From an uncultured Gemmatimonadales bacterium (GTDB lineage Bacteria; Gemmatimonadota; Gemmatimonadetes; Gemmatimonadales; GWC2-71-9), in assembly GCA_963771275.1 (NCBI GenBank), contig CAVYSW010000003.1:1664001-1728000 (forward strand): DNA of 64,000 bases, read 5' to 3'. The stretch's first letter is position 1, and each line of letters starts with the position of its first letter. Shown here one piece after another: positions 9,820 through 32,080 of the stretch. Under the pieces are notes generated by a model. It had not been told where the DNA came from and made no database searches. It was given only the letters and a program-made list of their open reading frames with translations. Both the position numbers and the translations under genes were made by a program.

Positions 9820-12800
9820 ATGAGCCGTTGGGCGCGCCTGGCGCTCGCGGTGGTCCTGCTCGCGTTCGGAGCCACGGGGCTCTGGGCACAGGGCACGACT
9901 GGCAAAATCGAGGGGACGGTTACCGACCCCAATGGCCAGCCCGTTGCGGGCGCCCAGGTCATCATCGTCGGCACGGCGGCCGGGGCGGTCACCGGCGGCA
10001 CCGGCTACTACTTCATCAACAACGTGCCGGCCGGCGTGTACACGCTCCGCGCCCAGATGATCGGCTTTTCGCCCAACGAGGTCCGCAACGCGCGCGTGCT
10101 CGCCGAACAGACGCTGACGGTGAACTTCAACCTGTCGACGGCCACGGTCCTCGGGGCGATCAGCGTCACGGTGCAGCAGAACCCGATCGTGCCGCGCGAC
10201 CAGGTGACGTCGAAATCGATCGTCACCGGCAGCGTGGTGAACGACATGCCGGTGGACAACGTGCGTGCGGTGCTGTCGCTCCAGCCGGGCGTGGTGGAGT
10301 CGGGCAAGGGGGACGGGCTGTCGATCCGCGGCGGCCGGGCCGGCGAGGCGGCGGTGTACGTCGACGGCGCGCTGGTGCGGAGCCAGAACACGGGCGGGTC
10401 GCGGCTCACCGTGGGCACGAACGCGCTCGAAGAGGCGTCCGTCACGACCGGCGCGCTCGGCGCCGAGTTCGGCGACGCCCAGTCGGGCGTGATCGCGTAC
10501 GTGACCAAGGCCGGGAGCTCGCAGTTCAGCGGGGCCGCGTCCTACGAGACCGACCAGCCGTTCGGCAAGAGCATCAGCGTCGGTTACAACCGCGGCGAGC
10601 TGTCGATCGGCGGGCCGATCATGAGCAACCTGACGTTCTACCTGTCGGGAACGCTCAACGGCCGGCAGTCGGGCGTCCGGGGGAAGGGCGGGGACGTCAT
10701 CCCCAGCTACGTCCTGGGCGGCCTCGACACGACCGTGATCGAGACCCAGGCGGACGGCAGCACCAAGGCGGTGGACATTCCGCGGTACGTCCAGTTCAGC
10801 GGCGCCTGCGATGCGTCCCTCAACTACGGCTACGAATGCCAGGGGCGCCGCCGGCCGTACAACTGGACGACGAACGCGACGGGCCAGGGCAAGCTGCAGT
10901 ACAGCTACGGCGGCGGCTCCGCGGTGTCGGCCACCGTCCTGTACAGCCAGGACCAGGCGCGCGACTGGAACTCGGGCTTCAACTACCGCCTGATGACCGG
11001 CACCCGCAGCTGGAGCAACGGGTTGATCGCGAACTGGACCCAGCAGGTGTTCCGCGAAGCGGAGCGCGAGCTGGCGTTCGACGTGAACCTGTCCTACCAG
11101 ACGGACCGCAGCATCTCGGGCGAGCTGGCTCCCTCGTACGAGCTGGGGCACCGCGACCCGTTCAACGGGTGGGTGCTCTCGCCGATGCAGTTCCGCGTCG
11201 ACTTCGACCACTTCTCGGACGACACCGCTGGGATGTACGGGCCGGGGAACGATACGCTCGTGGTCACCAGCCTGAACGGGCAGGCCGACTGGGACCGCCT
11301 GGTCCAGAACATCCGGACCAACCAGGGCACCCGGCTGCCGTACTGGAACCGCCAGGATCTGAACACGGGGCAGGCGTACCGCATGAACCCGTGGGCGCTC
11401 ACCACCGGCTACTCCACCGACGGGCTCGGCAACTTCAACTCGACGCTCTACCAGGAGCAGCGGTTCCTCGGCCGGGCCAACGTGGACTGGCAGTTCGACC
11501 GGTACAACCGGCTCAAGCTCGGCGGCGACGTGCAGCGCTCGCGCGTGAACTGGTTCAACTCCGGCGTGATCCGCCAGATCTTCCAGGAGGTCTACAGCGA
11601 GAAGCCGCTGCGCTACGGCGTGTACGGCCAGGACCGGCTCGATCTGGGCGACGTCGTAATCGAGGCCGGGCTGCGGTACGACTACTTCAACACGGGCGCG
11701 TACATCCCGGTGGTGCCGGGGCGCATCTTCACGAACCCGAATTTCAATCCGGCCGACTACCTCAATCCAGCCGACAGCGTGTTCTTCAAGGCCAGCGGTC
11801 ATGGGACCGTGTCGCCGCGCGTGCTGGTGTCGTTCCCGGTGACGGACCGGACCGGCTTCCGCCTGTCCTACTCGCATCAGGTGCAGTCGCCGGACCTGCA
11901 GTCGATCTATCAGGGCATCAACAACGACCTCGCGTTCACCAACACGAACGACAACTTCCCGCGCGACGTCACGTGGGGCAAGACGATCCTGTTCGAGTTC
12001 GGCATCCGGCACGCGTTCAGCCAGGATTTCGTGTTCGACATCTCGGCGTACAACAAGGACAAGGTGTCGGATCTGGCCGCGCGCATCCTGCCGTTCTACG
12101 ATCCCGCGACCCAGAAGATCGCGAACATCAACGTCCTGACCAACGCGGACTTCGGGAACACGCGGGGCGTGGACATGAGCCTGATCAGCCGCGTCGGCGA
12201 CTTCTTCAACGGGACGCTGACCTACACGTATCAGGTGGCCAAGAGCACGGGGACGGATCCGTTCTCGTACTTGAACACCACGTCGCGGGCGACGCTGGCC
12301 GTCACCGGTGAGCGGGTGGACCCGCCGCAGGCGCTGCTGCCGTTCGGCGAGAACCGCACGCACAACATCTCGGGCGCGCTCGCGTTCAGCTTCCCGAACG
12401 ACTTCGCGTCGGGCAGCTGGTACGGCACGGTGCTCAAGAACGGCGGCGCGTTCCTGCGCTTCCGGTTCGCGAGCGGCCTGCCGTTCACCAAGCTGGTCAA
12501 CTCCGGCGCCGGGCAGCGCGCGCCGTTCGAAGCGTGGGGACTCTCGGGCGCGGGTGCGGAGCCGCCGAACAGCTCGACGATGCCGTGGATCAAGGAAATG
12601 GACCTCCGGCTCACCAAGGGTCTCCGGCTCGCGGGCGCGGATTGGACGGTGTTCGCCGACGTCCGCAACCTGCTGAACCTGACGTCGATCACCCAGCTGT
12701 TCATCGAGACGGGAGACGTGGTGAACGCCACCCATCGACAGCTGAACTCGAGCAACGAGGTGTCGCGGCTGGTGGCCGAGGCCGGATCGAACGCGGTGAC

Positions 12801-13044
12801 GCAGAGCGATGGCTCGGTGTCGATCATGCTGCCGGCCACTTGCAGCGGCACGACCTGGCAAGGCGGACCGGTCAACTGCGTGCTGCTGAAGCGCGCCGAG
12901 GCCCGGTTCGGCAATGGCGACGGGACGTTCACCCGCGCCGAGTACATCGCGATGTGGGACGCGGAGTACGACATCTTCAACGGCAAGTACACGTTCTACG
13001 ACGCGCCGCGCAGCATCCGGCTCGGCTTCGAGCTGCGGTTCTAA
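9820..13044 (+). CDS. TonB-dependent-receptor-like outer-membrane barrel with N-terminal carboxypeptidase-regulatory-like domain (alternative ATG at 9796)
   Basis: Signal peptide ending LWA|Q, GKIEGTVTD...PAGVYTL domain, plug LQPGVV/IRGGR/TGALGAEFGDAQSGVI, GLRYDY, C-terminal PRSIRLGFELRF beta-signal. Confidence 0.9.
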   Translation: MSRWARLALAVVLLAFGATGLWAQGTTGKIEGTVTDPNGQPVAGAQVIIVGTAAGAVTGGTGYYFINNVPAGVYTLRAQMIGFSPNEVRNARVLAEQTLTVNFNLSTATVLGAISVTVQQNPIVPRDQVTSKSIVTGSVVNDMPVDNVRAVLSLQPGVVESGKGDGLSIRGGRAGEAAVYVDGALVRSQNTGGSRLTVGTNALEEASVTTGALGAEFGDAQSGVIAYVTKAGSSQFSGAASYETDQPFGKSISVGYNRGELSIGGPIMSNLTFYLSGTLNGRQSGVRGKGGDVIPSYVLGGLDTTVIETQADGSTKAVDIPRYVQFSGACDASLNYGYECQGRRRPYNWTTNATGQGKLQYSYGGGSAVSATVLYSQDQARDWNSGFNYRLMTGTRSWSNGLIANWTQQVFREAERELAFDVNLSYQTDRSISGELAPSYELGHRDPFNGWVLSPMQFRVDFDHFSDDTAGMYGPGNDTLVVTSLNGQADWDRLVQNIRTNQGTRLPYWNRQDLNTGQAYRMNPWALTTGYSTDGLGNFNSTLYQEQRFLGRANVDWQFDRYNRLKLGGDVQRSRVNWFNSGVIRQIFQEVYSEKPLRYGVYGQDRLDLGDVVIEAGLRYDYFNTGAYIPVVPGRIFTNPNFNPADYLNPADSVFFKASGHGTVSPRVLVSFPVTDRTGFRLSYSHQVQSPDLQSIYQGINNDLAFTNTNDNFPRDVTWGKTILFEFGIRHAFSQDFVFDISAYNKDKVSDLAARILPFYDPATQKIANINVLTNADFGNTRGVDMSLISRVGDFFNGTLTYTYQVAKSTGTDPFSYLNTTSRATLAVTGERVDPPQALLPFGENRTHNISGALAFSFPNDFASGSWYGTVLKNGGAFLRFRFASGLPFTKLVNSGAGQRAPFEAWGLSGAGAEPPNSSTMPWIKEMDLRLTKGLRLAGADWTVFADVRNLLNLTSITQLFIETGDVVNATHRQLNSSNEVSRLVAEAGSNAVTQSDGSVSIMLPATCSGTTWQGGPVNCVLLKRAEARFGNGDGTFTRAEYIAMWDAEYDIFNGKYTFYDAPRSIRLGFELRF

Positions 13045-13058
13045 CGGGGAGTCGAGGG

Positions 13059-13088
13059 GGGCGGCGTCCGGACGACCGGGCGCCGCCC
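13059..13088 (+). other. GC-rich intergenic hairpin without U-tract
   Basis: gggcggcgtccgg-acga-ccgggcgccgccc. Confidence 0.65.
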
Positions 13089-13122
13089 ACGACGATCACC
13101 AGCTCTCGAGGGATTCTGACCT

Positions 13123-16100
13123 ATGCATTCACGCCTGATCAGCCGAGTGACGCGCGCCGTCCTGGTGGGGCTTGCCCTGGCAGTGATCGTGGGGCAGGCG
13201 GCCGCGCGTCCCAAGCCGGGCGCGCGCCAGTCGAGGGGGTTCAACCTCTTCGCGGGAGTCAACGTGAAGATGGTGGTGAACCGCGTTGACTGTAACATCA
13301 ACAACCTTGGCGAAGTGTGCGTCGACCCGACCAACTCGCCGAGCATCCCGGGTGGCTTCTGGCCGCGCGGGACGCCCGACCAGTACATCTTCAACTCCGG
13401 CCTGCAGCTCGCGGGGGTCATCCCGGCCAGCGCGGGCTTCGCGTGGGCCGGCGACACTGTGGGCGCCTACTTCATGGACCCGCGCGGTGACCAGGCCGTG
13501 GGCCGGGGCATCACGCAGACCTTCAGCTCGATCGACCCAGCCGACGCGGCCGCCTGGCCGTACGCCGCGTACGTCCGCGACACCGCGATCTATGCGTCGG
13601 CCCTGATCAACCGCCCCAACGTCTCGCAGCAGGACATGTGGATGCGGGCGTGGGACGGCGACCCGAGCCTCACGACCGGGCGGACCCACCCGATGGGGAT
13701 CCTGGTCGATCAGCGCGGGCTGGCCTGGAACTTCCCGACCGGCAACGAGGACATCCTCTATTTCGTCTACAATTTCATCAACATCACGCCAACCGATCGA
13801 TCCGTCTATCTGGCCAACCTGCCGCCATACCTGGCCAACGACGCCCAGGCGGTGGACGAGATCGTGGCCGTCGGGCAGCGCCTGCACGACGGGGCGGCGA
13901 CCACGCTCGGCGTGACCATTCCGAGCGGCGGGTACCCGATCGACAACATGTACGCCGCGTTCTTCATGGACCCGGACGTCGCCGACGCGAATTTCAACTA
14001 CTCGACGGCGGTGCTGCCGTTCAGCCTGGCCGTGGCGTACGCGAACACCTTCGAGGGGCTCGCCGGCTACCTCTTCCCGCCCGACATCTTCGGCGCGCCG
14101 TTCGCGGCCGCCCAGGGCTTCGTCGGCGTGAAGTACCTCAAGAGCCCGAAGAACCCGGCCACGGGTGAGGAATTCGGTCTCACCATGTTCTCCAACACGC
14201 TCAACTTGGGCACCGGCTTCCCGGACCCGACGGGCGTGATCCAGATGTGGCGCTATCTCTCCGGCAACATCAATACCTCCGCCGGGGACAACCCCTGCAC
14301 GTTCCCCAACCCGATCCAGCGGCGCCTGTGCTACTTGTCGCAGGACCCGGTGGACACGCGCTTCTTCCAGTCGTCGGGTCCGTTCTCGCTCGAGCCCGGC
14401 CAGGTCCAGACGATCGTCGTGGCATACGTCCACGCCGCACCGGTGGCGGCCGCGATCGTGGTCGGCAGCGACCTCAAGCCCGGCATCCCGTCGAGCGGCG
14501 CGCAGTTCGCGGCCGGCGACACCGCCCGGACCGTCGAGCGGGGAACCGGGTGGGTGAGTGCCACTGACGCGAACGGCAACGGCGTGATCGAGCAGCAGGA
14601 AGTCGAGACCGTGCCGCGCTCGCTGCTGTGGAAGTCCCTGGTGGCCCAGGCCGTGTTCGACAACAAGTTCCTGCTGCCGTTCGCCCCGGAGCCCCCGGCG
14701 TTCTTCCTCGTGCCGGGCGACAACCAGGTGACGGTGGTCTGGGAGCCCTCGCCGACCGAGGATACGGGTGATCCGTACTTCGTCGTGGCCGGCGCCCCGA
14801 CGGTGCCCGGCCCGGGTGGCGAGCCCGTGCCCAACCCGCTGTTTGATCCCAACTTCCGCCAGAAGGACGTGGAAGGCTACCGCATCTATCGCGGCCGCAC
14901 GTCCGGCAATCTGGCGCTGATCGCCCAGCTCGACTACGGGACCACCACGTTCGTGGACTACACCGGCGCGATCGACTACGGGCAGTGCGCGCCCGAGCTG
15001 GGCATCGTGGGCCCGAGCAGCACCTGCCCGGTGACGTTCGAGTACCCCGTCACCGAGATCCTGCCGACGACCCTGCATAACGACGTTGGCATCGTCGGCA
15101 ATGTGATTCAGGTCCCGGCCGGCGGTCGCGTGAAGCTGGCCGACGGCTCGGTGTTCGTCGTGAAGGCCGACACCGCGGTCACGGGCGGCAACACCGGCAA
15201 ACCGGCGCTGGACGATACCGGCGTGCCGTTCGCCTTCATTGATCGTGGCGTGATCAACTCGGTGACGTACTTCTATGCCGTCACGGCGTTCGACGTGAAC
15301 TCGCTGCAGTCGGGTCCGTCGTCGCTCGAGTCCCCCCCCATCGCGCGGTCCACGGTGCCACGGGCGTCCTCCAGCCAGCTCGCGCTGGGACAGCTCGGAT
15401 CCGTCAAGCTGCTCGGGGGCGACGACACCGAGCTCGACCCCAACGCCGCGCTGCCGACGATCGACCCGACAACGGGGATCTTCTCCGGGCCGATGCCGCC
15501 GACCGACGGTATCGATCTCGGTCTGGCGGCGTTCATCTCCGAGCTGCTGCCGACCGAAGAGGGCGCGGTCAACGTCACGATCGACTCGATCGTGCCGGGC
15601 TACGCCACGGGGCTGGGGAACGGCGCCGCGGAGACCCCCGTGACGTACTACTTCACCGGCCAGGGGTCCGGTGCTCCCGTCCAGTTCTCACTGGCGGTCC
15701 AGCAGGAGGTCACCAGCGACCTGGGCCACGGCTCGGCCAACTTCCCGGCCACGAACGTGGACTCGGCGCGGGCCTCGCTCTACGGCGGTGCGCAGAGCGC
15801 GTTCCTCGCCGGCAAGGTCTCGGTCACCATTCCGGGCGACTATCGGTTGGCATCGTACGGACGCGCCGCGGCCAATGGTGATCCGGAAGGCGCGTCGGAG
15901 CAGACCGGGCCACGCTGGTGGGCCGGGAGCGACAACGAAAACACCAACCTGCCCAACTCCGGCTACTGCGTGCCGTGGGCCTCCACCTGCGGCGGCGCAA
16001 CGCCGGTGCCGGATGTGACACTCACGGCCGGCAAGCTGCCGGGCGTGGATACGGTGTTCCATCCGTCGGGGTACATCTCGATTCAGAGCGTTCCGGGGCG

Positions 16101-17046
16101 GGACCTCGACGCCGCCTTTGCCGGGGTCGTGCGTGCCGCGGACTTCAGCGTCTACTGGGGTGCCGCAGGCGCGGTGGATTCCGTAATCGACGTGACGCAT
16201 CACGTCCCCGTGCCGTTCTCCACCAAGCTCCGGGCGTCCTGGGGCATTCTCAACGCGTCGGGATTCGCCGGTACGAACCAGGCGCTGACCGACGACCGGC
16301 GCAACGACGTGCTCACATGGGGCGACATCATCTGCGTGGACCCGGTGCCCGCGCTGATGGACGGCACCGGCACGCGCAAGTGCGGTGGCGCGGCGCAGAC
16401 GCCGGCCGTGTTCTCGCAGACCGCCGAGCTCAGCCTCATCGCGCCGCGCTCGTCGGGGGCCACGCAGCCGAACCTGGCCGCGCTCGCCGCATCAGTGGTG
16501 AGCACGCAAGGGTTCATCTTCTATCTCAACGGGCACTTCTTCCTGATGTCGATGGCCAGTCTCCCGGCCTCCGGCACGGTGTGGCATGCCCGGTTCTTCT
16601 CAGGCAACGTCACCGGGTACGCGGCCGACGCGAATTACGGCTTCGTGGGGGACATCCGGCCGCCGGCGGTGCCGGGCCTCAGGGTCGCGATCACGTACTC
16701 GGGATCGAGCCTGAACGACTCGGTGACTACCGACGCGATGCTGGCGAAGGTGCACACGCTGCCGGATCCGTACTACGTCACCAGCAACATGGAGATCACG
16801 ACGCAGCGGAAGGTGCTGAAGTTCGTCAATCTCCCGGCGCAGTGCGTGATCCGCATCTACTCGTTGAGCGGCGTGCTCGTGAACCTGATCGAGCACAACG
16901 ACCCGACGGGCGGCGGCGAGGCTACATGGGGTGTTCGCAACCGGAACAACCAGTTCGTCGCGTCCGGCGTGTACTTCTACCACGTCGAGACGCCCGACGG
17001 GAAGCAGAAGGTGGGCCGGTTCACCGTCGTCAACTACGCCCAGTGA
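13123..17046 (+). CDS. Large secreted protein with split FN3-like module and T9SS-type C-terminal sorting domain
   Basis: Signal peptide; PEPPAFFLVPGDNQVTVVW/VEGYRIYR/FIDRGVINSVTYFYAVTAFD; C-terminus KVHTLPDPYY...IRIYSLSGVLV...W..RN...VASGVYFYHV...GRFTVV resembles the type A CTD/FlgD-Ig tail. Confidence 0.8.
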   Translation: MHSRLISRVTRAVLVGLALAVIVGQAAARPKPGARQSRGFNLFAGVNVKMVVNRVDCNINNLGEVCVDPTNSPSIPGGFWPRGTPDQYIFNSGLQLAGVIPASAGFAWAGDTVGAYFMDPRGDQAVGRGITQTFSSIDPADAAAWPYAAYVRDTAIYASALINRPNVSQQDMWMRAWDGDPSLTTGRTHPMGILVDQRGLAWNFPTGNEDILYFVYNFINITPTDRSVYLANLPPYLANDAQAVDEIVAVGQRLHDGAATTLGVTIPSGGYPIDNMYAAFFMDPDVADANFNYSTAVLPFSLAVAYANTFEGLAGYLFPPDIFGAPFAAAQGFVGVKYLKSPKNPATGEEFGLTMFSNTLNLGTGFPDPTGVIQMWRYLSGNINTSAGDNPCTFPNPIQRRLCYLSQDPVDTRFFQSSGPFSLEPGQVQTIVVAYVHAAPVAAAIVVGSDLKPGIPSSGAQFAAGDTARTVERGTGWVSATDANGNGVIEQQEVETVPRSLLWKSLVAQAVFDNKFLLPFAPEPPAFFLVPGDNQVTVVWEPSPTEDTGDPYFVVAGAPTVPGPGGEPVPNPLFDPNFRQKDVEGYRIYRGRTSGNLALIAQLDYGTTTFVDYTGAIDYGQCAPELGIVGPSSTCPVTFEYPVTEILPTTLHNDVGIVGNVIQVPAGGRVKLADGSVFVVKADTAVTGGNTGKPALDDTGVPFAFIDRGVINSVTYFYAVTAFDVNSLQSGPSSLESPPIARSTVPRASSSQLALGQLGSVKLLGGDDTELDPNAALPTIDPTTGIFSGPMPPTDGIDLGLAAFISELLPTEEGAVNVTIDSIVPGYATGLGNGAAETPVTYYFTGQGSGAPVQFSLAVQQEVTSDLGHGSANFPATNVDSARASLYGGAQSAFLAGKVSVTIPGDYRLASYGRAAANGDPEGASEQTGPRWWAGSDNENTNLPNSGYCVPWASTCGGATPVPDVTLTAGKLPGVDTVFHPSGYISIQSVPGRDLDAAFAGVVRAADFSVYWGAAGAVDSVIDVTHHVPVPFSTKLRASWGILNASGFAGTNQALTDDRRNDVLTWGDIICVDPVPALMDGTGTRKCGGAAQTPAVFSQTAELSLIAPRSSGATQPNLAALAASVVSTQGFIFYLNGHFFLMSMASLPASGTVWHARFFSGNVTGYAADANYGFVGDIRPPAVPGLRVAITYSGSSLNDSVTTDAMLAKVHTLPDPYYVTSNMEITTQRKVLKFVNLPAQCVIRIYSLSGVLVNLIEHNDPTGGGEATWGVRNRNNQFVASGVYFYHVETPDGKQKVGRFTVVNYAQ

Positions 17047-17052
17047 TTGACC

Positions 17053-17081
17053 GGGGCGTGGCGGCTCGGCCGCCACGCCCC
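17053..17081 (+). other. GC-rich intergenic hairpin without U-tract
   Basis: ggggcgtggcgg-ctcgg-ccgccacgcccc. Confidence 0.65.
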
Positions 17082-17100
17082 CGCCTCGGAGGCTGACATT

Positions 17101-18258
17101 ATGAATCGATTCCTGAGTGGAGTCCTCGTCGCGGCGCTGGGCGTGACAATGGCGGTGCCGGTTGCGGCACAGACAACGCCGACGACGAACAACACGGCCT
17201 ACGGCACGACCTCGGCCGAATTCCTGCTGCTCGGCGCCGGCGCCCGCGGTGCGGCCCTTGGCGGGTCGTTCGCCGCGATCGCCACCGACGTCGAGGCGCT
17301 GTACTGGAACCCCGGCGGGCTCGCGCAGCTCGAGCGCCCCGGGCTCACCGTCGGCACGTACAGCTACGTGGCCAACACTCGCTACACCTGGGCGGGAATC
17401 GCCTTCCCGATGGGAGGCGGCGCCCGCGCCATCGGCATCCAGGGGGGCAGCTTCGGGTTCTCCGGGCAGCCGATCTACACCCTGGAGAATCCCGAGGGCG
17501 ACGGCACGACGTACAGTGTCCGTGAGACCTTCGTGGGCCTGACCTATGCGCAGAACTTCTCCGACCGCTTCTCGGCGGGGATGACGGCGAAGTTCATCTC
17601 GGACCAGCTGGGCCTCGTGTCCGGTACCGGGTTCGCCCTCGACTTCGGCACCAACTTCCATGCCATGATCGGTCCACGGCCGATCCGCGCGTCGTTCGTG
17701 ATCCAGAACCTCGGTTCCACGATCAAGCACGACGGCCGCGGCCTCGACGTGACGGCCGTCCGGCCGCCGCCCCAGGGGCAGGTGGATCTGCCGCAGGAGC
17801 CGCAGCCGGCGCGCTACCAGACCAAGGACTTCGGGCTGCCGGTCGTGTTCCGCGTCGGTCTCGCCTTCGACTTCATCAGCATGGGGTCGGGACGGGTCAC
17901 GGCGCTCGGTGAGTTCACGCAGCCCAATAACAGCACCGCCTCGGCCAACGGCGGGCTCGAGGCGACGCTGCTCAACGTCGGCGGCACGGGATTCTCCCTG
18001 GCCGCGCGCGGCAGCTACACCTATCAGGCCGACAACAACTTCGACGCCAGCTGCGCGGCAGCCGGGTTCGGCTGCACCGGGACCGGCACGACATTCAGCA
18101 CCAACGTCAGCAGCAAGGATTGGCAGGACGGGCTGGCCCTGGGCGGCGGCGTCGGCTTCCGGTCCCGCAGCGGGTTCGGGCTGATGGTAGACTACGCCTG
18201 GCGGAGCCTGGGTCTGCTGGGTGGGACGAACTTCTTCAGCGCCACGCTGCATTGGTGA
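17101..18258 (+). CDS. PorV/PorQ-family (FadL-like) outer-membrane barrel
   Basis: Signal peptide AA|Q, FLLLGAGARGAALG and ALYWNPGGLA motifs, FSAGMTAKFI, QNLG, LPVVFRVG, terminal aromatic residue. Confidence 0.85.
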   Translation: MNRFLSGVLVAALGVTMAVPVAAQTTPTTNNTAYGTTSAEFLLLGAGARGAALGGSFAAIATDVEALYWNPGGLAQLERPGLTVGTYSYVANTRYTWAGIAFPMGGGARAIGIQGGSFGFSGQPIYTLENPEGDGTTYSVRETFVGLTYAQNFSDRFSAGMTAKFISDQLGLVSGTGFALDFGTNFHAMIGPRPIRASFVIQNLGSTIKHDGRGLDVTAVRPPPQGQVDLPQEPQPARYQTKDFGLPVVFRVGLAFDFISMGSGRVTALGEFTQPNNSTASANGGLEATLLNVGGTGFSLAARGSYTYQADNNFDASCAAAGFGCTGTGTTFSTNVSSKDWQDGLALGGGVGFRSRSGFGLMVDYAWRSLGLLGGTNFFSATLHW

Positions 18259-18313
18259 GCGCGACGCGTGGGGGACCGGCCGGTCCGGTCGCCCCGCGCG
18301 AGGCTGAGCAGGC

Positions 18314-20766: not shown

Positions 20767-20796
20767 CGCGTACCAACGGCGCGCGCCAGTCGGAAA

Positions 20797-20835
20797 ACCG
20801 CCCCCGGGGGCCGCGTTTGGCTCCCCGGGGGCGGT
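20797..20835. terminator. Probable bidirectional intrinsic terminator
   Basis: accgcccccggggg...ctccccgggggcggt stem with an A-run on one side and tgtgtt on the other, between convergent genes. Confidence 0.75.
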
Positions 20836-20871
20836 GTGTTCCTCCCGCCGGGTGACCGGTCCCGCGGTCCC

Positions 20872-23316: not shown

Positions 23317-24399
23317 CTACGTCGGTGCGCGAAGCAGCAGGACCAGCCCGGCGATCCCGAAGGCGATGTTGGGCACCCACGCCGCGAGTACCGGCGGCAG
23401 CAACCCGCCCGCCCCGATGCCTTCCGAGAGCTGCACGAGAATCAGGAACACGACGGTGGTGAGCAGGCTGATGGCGATGCCGATCGCCCCGCTCGCCTTT
23501 GGGGCCGTGACGGCGAGCGGCGCGGCAAACAGGGCGATGACGACGCAGGTGAACGGAATCGCGAGCTTCAGCGCCTGACGCACACGCAGCCGCCGGCCGT
23601 CCCCGCCGGATCGCTCGAGATCGTCGATGTAGCGGCCCAGTTCGGCGTAGCGCATCTCCTTCGGCACCTTCGGCTCGACGAGGAGATCCGCCGGGGTCTG
23701 GGTGATCGAGCGCTGGACCAGCGAATCGAACCCGAACGTCTCGGTCGCATCGGGACCCGTCACGACGCGGAACTGCGGGCGCGCCAGCACCCAGCGGTGC
23801 GTCGAGTCGTCGAACCGCGCGCTCGGTGCCTCGACGACGAGCGTCGGGTACGCCGGGCCGGTGCCTTCGCGCTCGAGCACGAGGTCGCGCAGCATGTTCT
23901 GTCGGACGTCGAGCGCCCGGACGGCGTACACCCATCCCTCGTCCGCGCGGTACACGAACGAGTAGCGCGCCGGCGTGGAGCGCATCTCGCGCTCGCCGAG
24001 CAGCTCGAGCTGCCGGGTGGTGGCGACCGGCGCCCACTCGCCCACCACCAGGGTGGCGAGGGACGCCAGCACGGCGGCGCCCAGCACGGGCGCCACCGTC
24101 CGGCGCGTGCTGCGGCCCGACGCCCTGGCCGCGGTGAGCTCGGAGTGGCGACTCATCGCGCCGAGGCTGAACACCGTGGCGAACAGCACCGCCGCGGGCA
24201 GCACCTGGAAGATCTGGTCGGGCAGGCTGTACGCGTAGCCCAGCGCGATGGCTTTCGGCGCGATGCCGCGCGACAGGTGGACGTCCAGCGCGTCGGTCAG
24301 CTGGAACGCGATGACCAGGAGCGGCAGGCCGAGCGCGGTGACGAGCAGCACGCGGGCCCACTCGCGCAGCAGGTACCGGTCGAGGATGGCGCGTTTCAC
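23317..24399 (-). CDS. lptG: LPS export permease, LptG-like
   Basis: ILDRYLLRE start, SELTAARASG, KLAIPF; tandem with the lptF-like gene (GTGA overlap). Confidence 0.8.
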   Translation of the reverse strand: MKRAILDRYLLREWARVLLVTALGLPLLVIAFQLTDALDVHLSRGIAPKAIALGYAYSLPDQIFQVLPAAVLFATVFSLGAMSRHSELTAARASGRSTRRTVAPVLGAAVLASLATLVVGEWAPVATTRQLELLGEREMRSTPARYSFVYRADEGWVYAVRALDVRQNMLRDLVLEREGTGPAYPTLVVEAPSARFDDSTHRWVLARPQFRVVTGPDATETFGFDSLVQRSITQTPADLLVEPKVPKEMRYAELGRYIDDLERSGGDGRRLRVRQALKLAIPFTCVVIALFAAPLAVTAPKASGAIGIAISLLTTVVFLILVQLSEGIGAGGLLPPVLAAWVPNIAFGIAGLVLLLRAPT

Positions 24400-25865
24400 G
24401 GGCCGGCCGCCCTGCGGGCTCCGCGGCGACCGAACCACCGTGGTTTCGCCGCCGTCCGGCTCTGATACAGCAGCACGAGGCCGGCGAGGCCGAACAGGAC
24501 GTTCGCCGTCCACAGAATCCACGGCGGCGCCACCAGGCGGTCCGCCAGCGACTCGCCGGCGATCAGCACGATGTAGTAGAACCCGGTGATCACGAAGCCG
24601 ACGCCGAGCACCAGTCCCAGGCCGCCCCGCGGGAACCGGATGGCGGTCGGCACGCCCACCAGCACGAATACGATGCACGCGACGGCGATCACGTACTTCT
24701 TGTGCACCTCCACCAGGAAGTGGACCGCCCGGACGGCGGATTGGCGCGCCCGGTCCTGATAGGTCCGCAGCTCCGTCGCGCGGAGGTTGGGGCTGCTGCT
24801 CGCCCGCTGGACGCGTGGCACGACGGCGGGCTTCGTGAAGCGCGCCAGACTGTCGTACACCAGCCGCGGCGGCTGCTGGGCCTGCAGCTTGGGCGGCAGC
24901 AGCCACGCGGCCCAGCGCTCGAGCGCGGCGCAGTAGGCGCTGCGTCGCGGCGCGGGCGGCGTGGTGTCGGGCGGCAGGTCGGCGAGCCCCACCAGCGAGC
25001 GCAGTCCGTTGAGTCGCACGGCGGCGGCGCGCCGGCTCGCCAGCACCCCCTCGCGCCGTGCGGCGTCGATCGACTCCTCCATCTCGCAGATGCTCATCTC
25101 GCGGTCGGACTTGTACGGGTCGACCAGCGTGCGCCGCAGCTCGTTGCCCACCCCCCGGACCCGCACCAGGTCGCGCGCAAACGCGACCTGCTGGAACATC
25201 TTGGGGTTCGAGTGGTCAAACTCATGCATGACGCCGGAGAACAGCGTGAGATTCAGGTCCTGCTGGTCTTCCGTCTGGCTGAGGTACCCGCTGTCCGCAT
25301 AGATCACGCGCTTTCGGTCGTTGGCCAGGTCGTAGATCGTCACGTCGTGGAGCGCGTAGCTCGCGCGGTCGATCGTCGAGGCCCGCAGGAAGAACTGACC
25401 GGGTCGCACCTCGTTGATGACCTGCTCCTGGAGGATGAAGGTCGGCTTCTTGCGGTAGATATCCGAGTACAGCGTGCGCAGGCGATGGTTCGAGCGGGGC
25501 AGCACCTGGTCGTTGAACGCGAAGGACACGAGCGTCAGCACCGCGCCGGCCACCAGCAGAGGGCGGAGGACGCGCCACAGGGAAACGCCCCCCGCGCGGA
25601 GCGCCGTGATCTCGCTGTCGCCGGCGAGCCGGCTGACGCTGAACAGCACGGCGACCAGCACGGCGATCGGGAACGACAGGGCGAGGATGAACGGGATCGA
25701 CAGCGCGAACACCTCGACGATCACGCCCACGGGCAGGCCCTTGCCCAGCAGGTCGCCGATGCGCTTGGCGATCTGGTTGAGCAGCATGATGCCCGTCACG
25801 GCGCCGAGCGCGAACGCGAACGGGCCCGCGTGGATGCGGATCAGGTAGCGGCTGAGCAGTGACAT
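24396..25865 (-). CDS. lptF: LPS export permease, LptF-like
   Basis: LSRYLIR start, RLAGDSEITALRAGG, VEVHKK, periplasmic beta-jellyroll-type middle region. Confidence 0.8.
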   Translation of the reverse strand: MSLLSRYLIRIHAGPFAFALGAVTGIMLLNQIAKRIGDLLGKGLPVGVIVEVFALSIPFILALSFPIAVLVAVLFSVSRLAGDSEITALRAGGVSLWRVLRPLLVAGAVLTLVSFAFNDQVLPRSNHRLRTLYSDIYRKKPTFILQEQVINEVRPGQFFLRASTIDRASYALHDVTIYDLANDRKRVIYADSGYLSQTEDQQDLNLTLFSGVMHEFDHSNPKMFQQVAFARDLVRVRGVGNELRRTLVDPYKSDREMSICEMEESIDAARREGVLASRRAAAVRLNGLRSLVGLADLPPDTTPPAPRRSAYCAALERWAAWLLPPKLQAQQPPRLVYDSLARFTKPAVVPRVQRASSSPNLRATELRTYQDRARQSAVRAVHFLVEVHKKYVIAVACIVFVLVGVPTAIRFPRGGLGLVLGVGFVITGFYYIVLIAGESLADRLVAPPWILWTANVLFGLAGLVLLYQSRTAAKPRWFGRRGARRAAGP

Positions 25866-25914: not shown

Positions 25915-25960
25915 GCGCCTCCTCGCCTCATCCAGGGCGTACCCCCCTCTCCCGGTGAAC

Positions 25961-28900
25961 GTGCCGCGCCTCGCTCCCACCGCGCTGCTGATCCTCGCCC
26001 CGCTGCTGGCTCCCGGCAGCGCGGGGGCGCAGGGAGCGGGCGACAGTCTCCCGCGGATCACGCTGCGGCTCGCGGTGCCCCCCCTCAGCGCGCCGCCGAT
26101 GGCGGAGCTGCGGCCGGGCGGCGTGCTCGGTCTCCGGGTCCCGGCCGCGCTGGTGGGGGCCGCGTGGGAGGCGGCGACCCGTCGGCTGATCGCGGCGAAC
26201 CGCGAGGCACGCCGGGAGGCGCCGTGGGAGCCGGTCTTTCCGGAGGCCGAGATCCCGAAGGCGGCACCCCCGCCGCCGCCCTTCGCGCTGAGACCCCCGC
26301 AGCAGGAGGCGCCGCCAACGCCCGGCACGATCGAGGCGCTCGGCCGCTACGCCGATCTCGGCCTGCAGCTCCACGCGCGGTTCGAAATGAAGATGGACCA
26401 GTTCCGCAACCTCCGGTGCACCGCCGCGGACGTGATCAACCCGGTATCGGGGTGCCGGGGCGGGTTCCCGACGCCGTCCCTCGACCAGCAGTTCGACGTG
26501 CGGGCGGGCGGGGTGGTGGGGGACCGCGTGCACGTCAACGTGGACTACGACAGCCAGCGGGAGTTCTCGGCCAACAACGACATCCACGTGTACTACGAGG
26601 GTCTCGAGGACGAGATCCTCCGCCGCGTCGAGGTCGGCAACGTGACGTTCGCCGGACCGGCGTCGCGCTTCATTACCGCCGCGATCCCCGCCAACTCGTT
26701 CGGCGTCCAGGCCGAAGCGCAGCTCGGCGCCTTCGAGTTTCGCTCCATCATCGCCCAGCAGAAGGGCTCGCAGGTCCGCACCCGCGTCTACACGGTCGGG
26801 GAGCAGACCACGGAGCCGGTGGATCGCGAGCTGCGCGATCTCGATTTCGAGGTGGGCCGGTTCTTCTTCGTCGTCAAGCCGAGTCTGGTGCCCGGCTTCC
26901 CGGACGTGGACGTGCTGGCCCTGACGCCCGATCTCGTCCCGGGCGACGTGCGCCCGCAGCAGGTGCGCGTCTACCGGTTGCGCGCGCAGAGCGCGCAGAA
27001 CCCGAACAACCCGAACCTCGGCGGCATCACGGCCGTCGCGCTGCGACCGGACGGGCCCCAGCGGGTCGGGCCGTTCCCCTGGGAGCTGCTCGTCGAGGGC
27101 CGTGACTATTACCTCGATGCGACGGGCCTGTGGTTCGCGCTGGGAACCAGGGTGGGCGACCAGGATTTCCTCGCCGTCTCGTACATCACGGCCTCGGGCG
27201 ACACGGTGGGTACGTACCCCGCGGTGAACGGCACGCTCGACACGCTGGAGCTGATCTACGAGCCCCGCCGCGGGCCCGACGCCGCCACCTACGCCTACGA
27301 GATGCGCAACGTCTACCGGCTCGGCAGCAGCGATCTCAACCGGACGAGCCTGGCCCTGTCCCTGGTCGTGAACGAGTCGGAGCGGCCGCTCGACGGCCGG
27401 GGGACCTACCTCTCGCGGCTCGGGATTGCCCTGGCGTCGGACGAGTCGCGGCTCGACGAGTTCAATCGCGTGTTCCCGCGCGACCGCGACCCGAACCAGG
27501 GCGCCCCGATCCGCGATCTGTTCCTGATCTTCCCCAATCTCCGGCCGTTCGGAGACTCGACCCGGCTGGCGACCGCCGAGCGGAACGACTCGTTGTACCA
27601 GACGCCCACCTACCTGCTGGCGAGTCAGGGGCCGCCGCCCCGGTTCCGGTTGCGGTTGCACTACGACGCCGTCGGAGGCGGAGACCGCGGCACGCTCGCG
27701 CTCGGCGCGCTGCAGATCCGCGAGGGCAGCGAGAAGCTCTATATCGGCAACGAGCAGCTGGTGCGCGGACGGCAGTACCAGATCGACTACGCCGTCGGGC
27801 AGGTGACGTTCATCAACTCCGACTCGCTGTTCCGCGGCCCCACGCAGGTCCGCGCGCAGTTCGAGGAGAACCAGCTGTTCGACGTCGCGCCCAAGAGCAT
27901 TCTGGGACTGTCCTCGACCTACGATTTCGGCGCCCACGGCCGCCTCAACGCCATCGTGCTGAGCCAGCAGGAGAGCAGCGTGCTCACGCGGCCGCAACTG
28001 GGCTTCGAGCCCCAGTCGAATTTCCTGGGCGGGCTCAGCACCGAGCTCGATTTCCGCCCCGACATCGTCACGCGGGCGCTGAACGCCCTGCCGCTCATCT
28101 CCACGTCGGTCCCGTCGCACCTCACGGTGAACGGCGAGATCGCCATGTCGCGGCCCAACCCGAACAAGGCGGGCCAGGCGTATCTCGAGGAGTTCGAGGG
28201 CACCGCCGCCCGCCCGCTCTCCCTCATCGAGAACGCCTGGACGACGGGCAGCCGGCCCGAGTCGGGCCGGGGCCTCGCCCCGCCGTACCTGTCGCCGCTC
28301 GGGGGGTTCGCGGACGCGGATGCGGTGCCCCTGGTGTGGCAGAATGCCATCCAGATCGGGAACCAGGCGCTCCAGTTCGAGCCGCGCGACATCGATTCGA
28401 GCATCGTCCTGACCGGCGCCGCCCGCGAGCTCGAGACGGTACTGTGGCTCTCGCTCAAGCCCGACACGATCGGCGGCGCGCCCGATCCGGTCACCGGGGC
28501 GCCACGCTGGTATCGGCCGCACACCCCCGGCCCCCGCTGGCGCAGCATTGCCCAGTCGCTGGGCGGCAGCGGCCTCGGCATCGATCTGTCGCGCGTGGAA
28601 TACCTCGAGTTCTGGGTGCTCGAGGACGCCGACCGCAAGGCCAAAGGCGACGGCGTCACGCTGCTGTTCGATTTCGGCACGGTGTTCGAGGACGCCGAAG
28701 CGTTCGGACCGGATACGCTGCGTGTGAGCGGCGCGGACACGGCATTCAGCGGCTTCCAGTTCATCGGCCGGGGGAAGCTCGACACCGAACGGGACACGCT
28801 CACCGGCGTGTTCAACGCCACGGTGAACGACGTGGGCGTGCTGACGGACCTCCTCCCCAGCGTGGTGAACGGCGCGACGGGCGAGACGCTCACCAATCTC

Positions 28901-31900
28901 CCGCTGTGCGAGGCGACGCCCGGGACGGGCCTGCCGGTGTTCCCGCTGGGCGACTTGGGGGCGCGTTGCACGCGCCGCAACGGGTTTGCCGACGGCGAGG
29001 ACCTGAACGGCGACGGGCGACTCGACATCACGGTGGGCACCGTGCAGGAGGACGTGTTCCGCTACGTGTTTCCGGTGGGCGACGAGCGGTTCTTCGTGCG
29101 CAACGGCAACACGCTGGTCGACGCCCGCGGCCGGCCGCTGACCTGGCGGCTGTACCGCATCCCGTTCCGCGAGGACACGCTGCAGATCGGCGCCCCGAAC
29201 ATCCGACAGATCCAGGACGTCCGGATCACGGTCGTGGCGCCGGATCGCGGCCCGACCGAGCAGGAAGTGTTCTTCGCGCTGGCGCGCATGGGGTTCGTCG
29301 GGGCGCCCTGGATCAAGCGCGCGGCGACGCCGATCGCCGGGATCAGCGGCTCGCTGGGCGAGCCGCACGGCGAGGTCGTGGCGTCGGTGGTCACGACGGA
29401 AAACGCGGACCTCGGCTACACGCCCCCGCCGGGGGTGGTCAACCAGGCCGACCAGCAGGGCGCCGGCCTGGAGTTCGCCTCGCAGCAGATCAACGAGAAG
29501 TCCCTGCGGCTGCTGGCGCGCGGGCTGCGCGACGGCGAGCGGGCCGAGGCGTTCGTGCGGTTCACCGACGAGGCGGACAAGAACTTCCTGCGCTACGGGA
29601 AGATGCGGGTCTGGGCGCGGGGGCGGGGCCCGGGGTGGGAAGACCGGGACCTCGAGTTCTTCATCAAGGCGGGACGGGACGAGTTCAATTTCTACATGTA
29701 CCGCACGCCAATCCGCTCGGTGGATTGGGTGCCGGAGGTCGTGATCGACCTGCAGCGCTGGCTCGTGCTGCGCGCGCAGATCGAGGCCGCCTTCCTCCGT
29801 GGAGAGCCCCCGTCGGGCGCGGAACAGTGCGGCGGCGACTCCACCGCGTACGTCGCGTGCGACGGGCCGTACGTGGTCCAGGTGCGGAATCCGTCGGTCG
29901 GCCCGCCGAACCTGGCGCGTGTCTCCGAGCTCGCCGTCGGGATCCTGCGCGTGCGCCAGTCGGTCTACATCGACCAGGCCGAACTGTGGGTCGACGACAT
30001 CCGCCTGAGCGACGTGATCGACGACATGGGACTGGCGGGGGCGATCGACGCCCGGCTGCAGGCGGCCGACGTGGCGGACTTCGCGCTCGGCTTCACCACG
30101 CGCGACGCCCGCTTCCAGCAGCTCGGCGAGGCGCCGAGTTACATCACGGACGCGGCGCTGCGGCTGGGCGGGACGTTCCGCCTCGACCGGCTGATCCCCG
30201 GTGGGGGCTTCAGCATTCCCTTCTCCGTGCAATACACCCGGTCGGCGTCCGATCCCTTCTACCTGAACCGCAGCGACGTGCGGGCGGATGTCCTGACCGG
30301 GCTGCGGCGACCGCGCAGCAGCGCGACATCCTACGCCCTCGCCTATCGGCGCATCACGCGCGGCCGCTCCCTGCTCGAGAACCTCCTGGTCGATCCGATC
30401 TCGGTGCAGGCGTCGCTCACGCAGGGCCGCAGCACCACCGAGCTGACCGATGCCTCCACGACGAACCGCCAGGCGCGGATCGACTACAGCAGTGTGCCGC
30501 CCGCGGCGACGGTCCGGGCGGCACCGGGCTTCGTCGTCGCGCTGGTGAACGGCCTGCCGGCGTTCATCCGCAACAGTGAGTTCGCCTCGGCACTGCGCAA
30601 TGCCCGGCTGCGCCTCACCCCGGCGCTGGTGCGCGGCTCGGTCACGCTCACGGATGCCCGGACGGAGCGGTTCGCGTTCCGCGTCCCGGTGGCACTGGCC
30701 GCCGATTCGGCGCTGCAGCCCCTGCGCGGCATCAACGCCACCCTCCGCACCGACGCCGGCATCGACCTCCGGCCATTCCCGACGATGAGCCTGCGGGGGG
30801 ACTACAGCGCCACCCGCGACCTCCAGGACTATGGGGACACGACCACCGTCGGCCGGCTGCTGAAGGTCGCGAGCTCCCGCTTCCTCGGATGGAACGTGGG
30901 GTTCGTGCGCACGAAGACGATGGGGGTCGGGTTCAACGTCTCGCCCGCCCTGGCCAGCTGGTTCCGGCCCCGGTTCGTGTTCGCGGGCCGATCCAGCTTC
31001 AATCGGGATCCCAACAACCAGCTGCCGGTCCGTCTGGAGGGGGACACGGCGGGCGCGTACCGGCTGCCCGAGAGCCTGTCCAATTCCCAACACCAGGAGT
31101 TCGGCGCCACGGTCTCGATCGGCCAGCTCGCGCAGGGGGTGTTCGGGGACTCGAGCTTCGTCAGCCGCCTGTTCCGGCGCATCCAGCCGATCGACGCGCA
31201 GCTCACCCGCGACTTCCGCTCGGGCTTCGATCGACCGACGTTCGACGCCTCCCTGGGCTACCAGCTCGGCCTGGGAGGGCTGGGTGCGTTCCGGGCGCAG
31301 CGCGGCGTGCCGGCCACGTCGGCGGGCGACGGCCGCGGCCGGACGGTCGCCGGCGGCCTGCAGCTGCCGCTCGGTCTCAACGTGCGGCTCAGCTACCGGG
31401 ACCAGCAGAACACGTCGTGGGCGCTGCGGTCCTGGGAGGCCGAGCAGGTCCGATTCGACCAGCGGAGCCGCGAGTGGCCGTCGGGATCCCTGTCGTGGAC
31501 CTACTCGCCGCGCTGGGCCTTGCGCCGGGTCATCTCGATTCTCAGCGCCAACGCGCGCCTCACGCGGTCGTTCTCGTTGACCGAGCAGCCCGGCCTCGCG
31601 GGAGACGAGCCGTCGCGCACCCAGAATACCGCGCGCGCGGTCGCCCCCTCGGTGAGCATCACGTGGATCGGCGGGATCACCACGTCCATGCAGTACTCGC
31701 ACGCGACGAGCGATGCGCTCAATTCCGGCAATACGACGCGACGCGACCAGGAAGACTGGTCGGGCGCCATGAACTTCGGGTTCCGGCTGCCGCGCTCGCT
31801 CATCCGGCTGCGGAACGACATCCGCACGACCCTGTCGGTCAATTCCTCCGTGGTGACGACCTGCCTGCTGCGGGGCGGCACGACCGAGTGCTCCCCCGTA

Positions 31901-32080
31901 TCGGACAGCCGCCGCCGGGCGGTGGACCTGCGGCTCGACACCGGCTTCTCGCCCCAGGTGCGCGGCGGCGCTAGCTTCAGCTACGTGCTGACGGAGCAGC
32001 GTCAGACCTCGGCCCGCTACTCGCAGCTCACCGTCACCGTGTTCGCCGAGGTCTTTTTCCTGTCCGGACAGATCCGATGA
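25961..32080 (+). CDS. sprA: SprA/Sov-like large outer-membrane barrel (T9SS translocon homologue); start approximate
   Basis: VNVDYDS...IHVYYEGLEDEILRRVEVGNV, YEMRNVYRLG, QYQIDYAVGQV, AYLEEFEG, EYLEFWV, EDLNGDG, WRLYRIP, NEKSL, LWVDDIRL, followed by a long amphipathic beta-strand region. Confidence 0.85.
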   Translation: MPRLAPTALLILAPLLAPGSAGAQGAGDSLPRITLRLAVPPLSAPPMAELRPGGVLGLRVPAALVGAAWEAATRRLIAANREARREAPWEPVFPEAEIPKAAPPPPPFALRPPQQEAPPTPGTIEALGRYADLGLQLHARFEMKMDQFRNLRCTAADVINPVSGCRGGFPTPSLDQQFDVRAGGVVGDRVHVNVDYDSQREFSANNDIHVYYEGLEDEILRRVEVGNVTFAGPASRFITAAIPANSFGVQAEAQLGAFEFRSIIAQQKGSQVRTRVYTVGEQTTEPVDRELRDLDFEVGRFFFVVKPSLVPGFPDVDVLALTPDLVPGDVRPQQVRVYRLRAQSAQNPNNPNLGGITAVALRPDGPQRVGPFPWELLVEGRDYYLDATGLWFALGTRVGDQDFLAVSYITASGDTVGTYPAVNGTLDTLELIYEPRRGPDAATYAYEMRNVYRLGSSDLNRTSLALSLVVNESERPLDGRGTYLSRLGIALASDESRLDEFNRVFPRDRDPNQGAPIRDLFLIFPNLRPFGDSTRLATAERNDSLYQTPTYLLASQGPPPRFRLRLHYDAVGGGDRGTLALGALQIREGSEKLYIGNEQLVRGRQYQIDYAVGQVTFINSDSLFRGPTQVRAQFEENQLFDVAPKSILGLSSTYDFGAHGRLNAIVLSQQESSVLTRPQLGFEPQSNFLGGLSTELDFRPDIVTRALNALPLISTSVPSHLTVNGEIAMSRPNPNKAGQAYLEEFEGTAARPLSLIENAWTTGSRPESGRGLAPPYLSPLGGFADADAVPLVWQNAIQIGNQALQFEPRDIDSSIVLTGAARELETVLWLSLKPDTIGGAPDPVTGAPRWYRPHTPGPRWRSIAQSLGGSGLGIDLSRVEYLEFWVLEDADRKAKGDGVTLLFDFGTVFEDAEAFGPDTLRVSGADTAFSGFQFIGRGKLDTERDTLTGVFNATVNDVGVLTDLLPSVVNGATGETLTNLPLCEATPGTGLPVFPLGDLGARCTRRNGFADGEDLNGDGRLDITVGTVQEDVFRYVFPVGDERFFVRNGNTLVDARGRPLTWRLYRIPFREDTLQIGAPNIRQIQDVRITVVAPDRGPTEQEVFFALARMGFVGAPWIKRAATPIAGISGSLGEPHGEVVASVVTTENADLGYTPPPGVVNQADQQGAGLEFASQQINEKSLRLLARGLRDGERAEAFVRFTDEADKNFLRYGKMRVWARGRGPGWEDRDLEFFIKAGRDEFNFYMYRTPIRSVDWVPEVVIDLQRWLVLRAQIEAAFLRGEPPSGAEQCGGDSTAYVACDGPYVVQVRNPSVGPPNLARVSELAVGILRVRQSVYIDQAELWVDDIRLSDVIDDMGLAGAIDARLQAADVADFALGFTTRDARFQQLGEAPSYITDAALRLGGTFRLDRLIPGGGFSIPFSVQYTRSASDPFYLNRSDVRADVLTGLRRPRSSATSYALAYRRITRGRSLLENLLVDPISVQASLTQGRSTTELTDASTTNRQARIDYSSVPPAATVRAAPGFVVALVNGLPAFIRNSEFASALRNARLRLTPALVRGSVTLTDARTERFAFRVPVALAADSALQPLRGINATLRTDAGIDLRPFPTMSLRGDYSATRDLQDYGDTTTVGRLLKVASSRFLGWNVGFVRTKTMGVGFNVSPALASWFRPRFVFAGRSSFNRDPNNQLPVRLEGDTAGAYRLPESLSNSQHQEFGATVSIGQLAQGVFGDSSFVSRLFRRIQPIDAQLTRDFRSGFDRPTFDASLGYQLGLGGLGAFRAQRGVPATSAGDGRGRTVAGGLQLPLGLNVRLSYRDQQNTSWALRSWEAEQVRFDQRSREWPSGSLSWTYSPRWALRRVISILSANARLTRSFSLTEQPGLAGDEPSRTQNTARAVAPSVSITWIGGITTSMQYSHATSDALNSGNTTRRDQEDWSGAMNFGFRLPRSLIRLRNDIRTTLSVNSSVVTTCLLRGGTTECSPVSDSRRRAVDLRLDTGFSPQVRGGASFSYVLTEQRQTSARYSQLTVTVFAEVFFLSGQIR

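Follow-up and report, generated by a model that had tools for sequence, protein, structure and literature searches.

An uncultured Gemmatimonadales bacterium carries an operon for a TonB-dependent transporter-like protein, a large secreted protein ending in a C-terminal domain (CTD) like those known from type IX secretion systems (T9SS), a PorV-family barrel, a GWxTD protein and a lipoprotein, with the gene for a homologue of the SprA translocon nearby. On balance, we favour the view that these genes represent type IX export working without the GldKLMN energy chain and employed here to build a surface uptake complex. Export of the cargo via SprA on a dedicated barrel, with retention by an uncut CTD, is very likely, given homology, gene order, co-loss and the missing sortase. 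That the cargo serves as a lid on the transporter, as suggested by the conserved gene order and a binding-type fold, is a reading towards which we lean slightly. The window, i.e. the whole 64-kb stretch analysed (C3:1664001-1728000), belongs to a genome (G000) of 3.86 Mb with 70% GC and 96.71% completeness. The six genes lie where the initial annotation had placed them, all on the + strand:

9820..13044, + strand: TonB-dependent transporter-like outer-membrane protein, 1074 aa; signal peptide, CarboxypepD_reg extension, plug, barrel ending in Phe
13123..17046, + strand: cargo, 1307 aa; signal peptide, beta-supersandwich, more all-beta domains, type A-like CTD
17101..18258, + strand: PorV/PorQ-family barrel, 385 aa, of the transporter-linked clade (by NF033709, family profile and tree)
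18314..19693, + strand: GWxTD protein, 459 aa; signal peptide, two tandem Ig-like sandwiches, GWxTD domain
19729..20766, + strand: lipoprotein, 345 aa; lipobox, C-terminal PPC domain; variable among relatives
25955..32080, + strand: SprA/Sov translocon homologue, 2041 aa, single copy (by TIGR04189 and 6H3I)

Translocon, carrier and transporter

Profile searches support the naming of the gene at 25955-32080 as sprA: its product scores 529 bits on TIGR04189 (cut-off 200), and its best PDB match is the SprA of Flavobacterium johnsoniae (6H3I, E 7e-28). The window barrel reaches 121.5 bits on the PorV/PorQ model NF033709, whose cut-off of 90 is exceeded by three paralogues in the genome, the narrower PorV and PorQ equivalogs staying below cut-off. 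The cargo tail (last 120 aa) scores 24.5-24.7 bits on the type A CTD model TIGR04183 (cut-off 23).

In the transporter, Pfam recognises the CarboxypepD_reg extension (E 1e-20) and the Plug domain (E 4e-7). The barrel itself has no Pfam match and was assigned by homology to paralogues that match PF00593, namely a 39%-identical one on contig C11 (3e-16) and that of a second module (2e-15). The transporter family is conserved over lineages of the Fibrobacteres–Chlorobi–Bacteroidetes (FCB) group. An orphan transporter (L002:10193-13266), 36-39% identical to that of the window, is split into two overlapping frames and has no adjoining cargo or barrel.

A conserved triad, and carrier and cargo lost together with SprA

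Conservation was followed in a sample of 141 genomes of the phylum, each at least 90% complete, and in loci of other lineages fetched with a profile from 22 relatives of the window barrel, where the 80 best out of 569 confirmed ones were used. The latter are labelled Zixiibacteriota, Ignavibacteria, KSB1, Calditrichia, Marinimicrobia, Cloacimonadota, WOR-3 and, in a few cases, Bacteroidota. A CTD protein stands directly upstream of the barrel in 78 of these 80 loci, and a transporter precedes the cargo in 62 of the 64 with room to see one. Within the phylum, 18 of 20 regions chosen by a cargo match keep the order transporter, cargo, PorV and GWxTD. The conserved unit is the triad of transporter, cargo and PorV, not the five genes. 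Cargos of other lineages share parts of the first two domains of the window cargo, with matches to the N-terminal domain in 8 and to the second domain in 43 of 78.

Profiling of sprA, porV and the cargo, as proposed in the initial annotation, showed that they are lost together. Among the 141 genomes, SprA was found in 113, the PorV family in 120 and the cargo family in 67. A strong PorV-family match occurs in 111/113 SprA-positive genomes and in three of the 28 SprA-negative ones (weak in six, none in 19), and the cargo family in 66/113 and 1/28, respectively.

These data also bear on a more sceptical reading, in which the barrel would be a FadL-type transporter or a BamG-like factor, the tail a plain Ig/FlgD domain and SprA engaged in some other job. 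PorV does belong to the FadL superfamily, the window barrel has weak TodX/FadL matches, the TIGR04183 score barely passes its cut-off, and the six SprA-negative genomes with weak PorV-family matches point the same way. Yet the family profile of the barrel prefers the PorV of 6H3I (E 1e-36) to TodX (2e-5), and both the co-loss with SprA and the CTD protein upstream of the barrel speak for a secretion carrier, making this reading highly improbable.

In a quick tree, all 37 transporter-linked barrels fall on one side of a branch with an SH-aLRT of 98, apart from 15 PorU-linked PorV (five PorU-linked rows were less than half filled, and five of 20 porU regions yielded no barrel). Both module barrels of the window genome sit in this transporter-linked clade, which supports the idea of a PorV dedicated to the cargo. 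An orphan PorV on contig C10 sits on a long branch among PorV proteins of the same phylum that are linked to PorU.

The second transporter-cargo-PorV module lies at C3:410864-419410. Its locus (L001:3379-18169, i.e. G000:C3:407378-422168) holds a GWxTD-TPR gene divergent from the transporter, a 1393-aa CTD cargo that is unrelated to the first outside the CTD, a PorV barrel, a small outer-membrane protein barrel and two lipoproteins. Genomes of family f10 have 10-14 PorV-family barrels each, and tandem arrays of the triad occur in other lineages (L038, L051, L073, L076, L086, L092, L098).

Might the cargo be exported and anchored as a free-standing adhesin, surface-layer protein or enzyme, an operon-mate that never touches the transporter? 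Cargo length, between about 600 and 1600 aa, shows a poor correlation with that of the transporter (rho 0.24, P 0.07, 58 pairs), lone cargo copies exist (L150, L144), and type B cargo on dedicated carriers is described as putatively adhesive (PMC12618676). However, the transporter-cargo-carrier order is kept over many lineages, transporter similarity tracks cargo similarity pairwise (rho 0.77, confounded by kinship), and the N-terminal domain is homologous over lineages. We thus regard a free-standing cargo as quite unlikely. Complex prediction with a stand-in pair from another lineage (L033 barrel residues 227-874 with the plug omitted; supersandwich 40-390) gave a score of 0.01.

A binding-type fold and a probably uncleaved tail

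The cargo consists of a beta-supersandwich (residues ~43-518), further all-beta domains and a CTD of ~110 aa at its end; Pfam returned nothing for three cargo segments. An AlphaFold2 model of residues 29-1176, built on 119 sequences, reached a pLDDT of 90.4 and a pTM of 0.78. In structure searches, its N-domain matched the non-catalytic N-domains of glycoside hydrolase (GH) enzymes of families GH15, GH94, GH65 and GH116 as well as mutarotases, the best match being a GH15 N-domain (VIA; Z 18.7, root-mean-square deviation 3.3, 255 aligned), and a second structure search agreed. The shared fold covers the first 460 residues, at 6-11% identity to these GH and mutarotase matches. The catalytic (alpha/alpha)6 barrel is absent from the model, which is almost all beta after residue 490, and the matches end at the N-domain. 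From its motifs, the second domain is presumably fibronectin-like.

The cargo tail most closely resembles the tails of PorZ (E 4.5e-8) and PorU; on the full PorZ profile, the cargo scores 26 bits of 260, in the tail region only. PorZ- or PorU-tail matches, a likeness at the level of sequence only, were found in 15 of 16 CTD tails, an S8 peptidase tail being the exception, and none of the 16 matched the type B model TIGR04131 up to E 1. PorU was found in none of 30 genomes of the window's class and in 36/36 elsewhere (34/36 above cut-off), i.e. in 30/30 cross-lineage genomes and 6/6 from other classes of the phylum. Since this class has no PorU, the CTD of the cargo probably stays uncleaved and holds the cargo on its barrel, in line with the initial annotation.

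Five CTD matches occur in the window genome. A conserved, single-copy protein of 141 aa (L008:4236-4661; G000:C10:287235-287660, + strand) has nothing but a signal peptide and a type A CTD (22.3 bits). It has matches in 125/141 genomes (in other classes, these are ordinary cargo tails) and is missing from 13/28 SprA-negative and 3/113 SprA-positive genomes. With Plug not found in this genome, the protein may seal SprA as a blank cargo or act as a PorA-like factor. An S8 subtilase with a weak type A CTD (L005:9173-11371) is likely an ordinary cargo for the orphan PorV. A short relative of the second cargo (405-437 aa, CTD present; L003:12048-13361), near the end of contig C6, is perhaps a remnant.

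No recognisable motor

Profile searches of the whole window genome gave no match for GldM, GldN, GldL or the C25 sortase, nor for GldL_N, PorG, PorU, PorP or Plug, and the GldK profile hit one generic FGE match (82 of 350 bits). Two Bacteroidia-labelled control genomes, G156 and G162, were positive for GldM, GldN, GldK, GldL_N, PorG, PorP and Plug. Profiles built from the control GldK/L/M/N, run unfiltered over 3295 called genes, recovered only an FGE-domain lipoprotein, with the best GldL match at E 0.075. The whole-genome searches thus agree with the initial annotation, which had recognised no porK/L/M/N or porU set in the window, and support a SprA-PorV pathway without a recognisable motor. 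Two FGE-domain genes considered as GldK were rejected: one appears to be an ergothioneine-type gene in pieces and the other an Ig-FGE lipoprotein. Locus L041, from a Vicingus-labelled assembly, is almost the same as Ignavibacteria loci and may come from a mis-binned contig; G156 remains a positive control.

How far does this pattern extend? GldM has no match in any of the 141 genomes of the phylum. The 50 genomes behind the 80 loci, whose completeness values are not stated, were searched for SprA, GldM and GldN: 49 have SprA, two have GldM and two GldN, both times the two controls, and the other 48 had no GldM or GldN match at E 0.001. PorP (PF11751) is found in 0/30 genomes of the window's class, compared with 20 and 8 copies in the controls. 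Plug (PF17116) is absent in G000 and G062 and present in 3/3 others. DUF4835, which we take to be PorD, occurs in 0/36 genomes of the phylum and 21/30 elsewhere. Lack of the motor is therefore general outside Bacteroidia in the sampled FCB genomes, and the missing sortase is a peculiarity of this class. Accordingly, the earlier alternative of a 'reduced or ancestral' pathway resolves into both: the missing motor is a widespread FCB state, and the loss of PorU is derived in this class.

An ordinary energised T9SS, whose GldKLMN equivalents have diverged beyond the profiles or been replaced by an unrelated motor, is an alternative. Energy is required for release in F. johnsoniae (PMC10994853), PMC12635249 describes force passing through GldK-PorG, and the dozens of CTD proteins in other motor-less FCB genomes suggest an efficient pathway. 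Nevertheless, SprA, PorV and PorU score high while GldM and GldN go unmatched, so that four motor parts would have to diverge together. Moreover, 28 neighbourhoods (eight from the phylum and 20 other FCB loci) have no conserved gene after sprA that is without an assignment, and the only two MotA/ExbB-family genes of the genome lie in TonB-ExbB-ExbD-ExbD and Tol-Pal clusters. A hidden motor of this kind is, in our judgement, doubtful.

A proposed route to the surface and the question of energy

Returning to motor-less export, the following route can be proposed. All parts would cross the inner membrane by Sec, as their signal peptides suggest, and the transporter and PorV barrel would enter the outer membrane. 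Inside the single SprA pore, the cargo CTD would then dock onto loops of its dedicated PorV-family barrel, and both would exit together by the lateral gate, a step that is strongly suggested. With no PorU to cut the CTD, the cargo would remain attached to this barrel, much as PorQ keeps PorZ and PorP keeps type B cargo. Tethered beside the co-encoded transporter, its conserved, non-catalytic supersandwich could capture a substrate for import driven by TonB-ExbBD, probably a fragment of a glycan or of another polymer, so that the job of SusD would be done by another route. Finally, the pair would have to be released from SprA without GldLM.

Loading of SprA with PorV needs no energy in vitro, and release of the carrier-cargo pair from SprA requires the GldLM motor and SprE in F. 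johnsoniae, as reported in PMC10994853. The likeliest answer, which we place just short of even, is passive release: this older SprA-PorV pair would dissociate thermally and diffuse laterally, and the cargo, by folding outside and being captured by a partner, would make the process one-way. An energiser that the profiles do not recognise is unlikely, and release by the ExbBD motors of the TonB or Tol type somewhat more so. Because motor-less genomes contain many ordinary CTD proteins as well (in other classes, 19-28 or more CTD matches per genome), trapping by the transporter can explain no more than a part.

On a longer time scale, the ancestral FCB T9SS may have comprised SprA, PorV carriers and PorU without a rotary motor, with GldKLMN-PorG a later addition in Bacteroidia and an ancient carrier branch tethering lids on TonB-dependent transporters over many phyla. 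In the window's class, it would have been cut down to the pore, carriers and few cargos, with release by TonB/ExbBD or transporter capture and the CTD-only protein replacing Plug. As a complete scenario, this is speculative and, taken as a whole, rather unlikely.

Several observations weigh against the motor-less uptake complex favoured here. HMMs (hidden Markov models) trained on Bacteroidia can miss very divergent motors, and passive release contradicts the only studied case, since F. johnsoniae needs motor and SprE for this step. The P values for co-loss are overstated because the genomes are kin, and the smaller number of genomes with the cargo family (67/141) than with SprA (113/141) means that SprA is kept for other cargo, too. 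The grouping of transporter-linked barrels is partly by construction, because the 80 loci were picked with a profile of window-barrel relatives. Concerning the lid, the fold likeness of the modelled supersandwich does not tell what is bound, one locus has transporter and barrel adjacent without a cargo between them (L089), in another a cargo and a barrel were found but no transporter (L059), and a SusD-like gene in two pieces exists away from the operon (G000:C3:1608163-1608641).

The GWxTD protein and the lipoprotein

The initial annotation had put forward the GWxTD protein as a candidate periplasmic component of the pathway. It scores 94 bits on TIGR04514 (cut-off 28). In its model, a helical/mixed domain accompanies two Ig-like ones, and neither a membrane anchor nor a motor fold is seen. 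A fold search gave common Ig-like matches only (Z <=9) and barely probed the GWxTD domain itself; an Atlas search returned GWxTD clusters only. As a translocon part replacing SprE or the motor, the protein would fit its position directly after the barrel gene in 18/20 regions, the paralogue divergent from the second module, its enrichment with SprA (in 105/113 SprA-positive and 17/28 SprA-negative genomes, 122/141 in total) and the TPR repeats of several paralogues. By contrast, its gene is found in none of the 80 loci of other FCB lineages, the window genome has 12 matches, one of them beside dnaA/dnaN-like genes, and the protein both occurs without SprA and is missing in eight of the 113 genomes with it. 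A role as secretion component is hence weakly supported at best, and replacement of SprE or the motor is improbable. The GWxTD protein and the lipoprotein are accessories specific to this lineage. An expansion of TPR-GWxTD proteins of ~720 aa each is found at G000:C3:491964-498701, 871783-873939, 1763141-1765318 and 181190-183418.

The sprA locus and other features of the window

Further features of the window are:

20790..20850, + strand: strong hairpin at the end of the five-gene operon, -43.4 kcal/mol, z -4.2
23317..25865, - strand: lptF and lptG, divergent from sprA; conserved sprA neighbours outside the secretion module
32077..32979, + strand: M28-family lipoprotein, probable glutaminyl cyclase, overlapping the sprA stop (6QRO, E 3e-64)

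sprA begins ~5 kb past the operon, separated from it by a ctaA-like gene, an APC permease gene and the divergent lptF/lptG genes. The latter adjoin sprA in 8/8 genomes of the phylum and 5/20 other FCB loci. Because this link persists where the operon is elsewhere or missing, sprA is a housekeeping gene outside the operon. The module, first described as compact, is neither compact nor self-contained: its translocon is encoded by a single gene in its own conserved locus and serves other cargo as well.

The best PDB matches of the glutaminyl-cyclase-like lipoprotein are bacterial glutamine cyclotransferases, and its gene lies beside sprA in 11/20 other FCB loci. Gln directly follows the likely signal cleavage site in the transporter, barrel, GWxTD protein and SprA; Gln at this position is known as the Q-rule of Bacteroidetes (PMC5837995). 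comEA, pilB, pilT and pilC follow sprA in the same direction (window 32983-37964), an arrangement conserved in the phylum only. The type IV pilus motor was rejected as an energiser: pil genes come after sprA in 5/7 testable phylum genomes and in 0/20 other loci, so the link is local synteny. exbB-exbD-tonB-like genes after sprA and the cyclase gene in 2/20 other loci (L110:3986-5794, L111:13772-15574) are a weak hint of release by motors of the TonB/Tol type.

None of 200 shuffles was as stable as the hairpin at 20790..20850, which is without a T run and was not called by the terminator scan; a promoter and terminator scan gave no signal exceeding shuffles. GC-rich hairpins also lie in the operon gaps 13045-13122, 17047-17100 and 18259-18313 (z -2.9, -4.2 and -2.0, respectively). 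Hairpins between the operon genes may set transcript stability and stoichiometry. No relative of the window PorV barrel was found on viral contigs.

Relation to earlier work

A literature search turned up nothing published about the transporter-cargo-PorV triad, GWxTD or the working of a motor-less SprA; supplements outside that search may anticipate the motor-less pattern. The same may hold for McBride and Zhu 2013 and Kulkarni et al. 2017, which reportedly treat the occurrence, in lineages of this kind, of CTDs and SprA in the absence of gld genes.

In current models, motor-driven ejection of the carrier-cargo pair is the essential T9SS step, and detection tools count a T9SS only where the motor is found. 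In this phylum, pore, carrier and tag persist and are co-lost without a recognisable motor, and the same pattern holds for 47/50 other FCB genomes. With their very small set of parts, cultured Gemmatimonadota make it possible to test both the need for a motor and the evolutionary order. As a candidate uptake complex, the triad is widespread and has gone undescribed, although the soil, sediment and marine bacteria that have it are abundant. If the proposal is true, T9SS-exported lids on transporters would be a second solution to the SusD problem, in many phyla.

Among published surveys, SprA is called FCB-specific and tabulated by phylum (PMC12611786), and the spread of TIGR04183 over FCB is noted in PMC5317091 and PMC4737851, both citing Rinke 2013. 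T9SSs are said to be possible in Gemmatimonadetes and others (PMC11285876) and in Chlorobi, Fibrobacteres and Ignavibacteriae (PMC5837995), and the complete T9SS to be restricted to Bacteroidetes (10.1101/031039, PMC5445135).

Comparison with known systems

With the T9SS of Bacteroidia (SprA-PorV-GldKLMN in F. johnsoniae, Sov-PorV-PorKLMN in Porphyromonas gingivalis), the system shares SprA, PorV-family carriers, a type A-like CTD and Sec signal peptides. In contrast, no GldK/L/M/N, PorG, PorU, PorP or Plug was found in the window genome, which has about five CTD proteins rather than dozens and encodes the carriers beside their cargo.

A second comparison is with the attachment complex of P. 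gingivalis and its pairs PorZ-PorQ and PorU-PorV, in which the CTDs of PorZ and PorU stay uncut. Judging by its tail, the window cargo has a CTD of the PorZ/PorU kind, and its carrier is likewise a PorV/PorQ-family barrel. The cargo itself is neither PorZ nor a C25 sortase, and the partner gene encodes a TonB-dependent transporter. PorU and PorZ are anchored on PorV and PorQ (PMC12365241).

The linkage of cargo and carrier genes, seen here in 78/80 loci, is shared with type B CTD proteins and PorP/SprF; type B cargos are genetically linked to, and held by, cognate carriers, according to PMC12618676 and PMC9143113. Here, however, the CTD is type A-like without a TIGR04131 match, the carrier belongs to the PorV/PorQ family, and PorP is absent.

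As in SusC/SusD, a TonB-dependent transporter with an N-terminal extension is followed by the gene for a surface partner. Unlike SusD, this partner is a 140-kDa CTD protein and not a lipoprotein, its lid role is predicted, and the transporter scores 27 bits on the SusC profile TIGR04056 (cut-off 368). With the N-domains of GH15, GH94, GH65 and GH116 and the galactose mutarotases, the cargo shares a fold but no (alpha/alpha)6 domain, and function is not transferable.

Taken together, the conserved system does not qualify as a canonical T9SS, given that no motor, hub, PorG, sortase or Plug was recognised, and it would work like the translocon-carrier pathway of the T9SS with the logic of PorZ-PorQ or of type B cargo.

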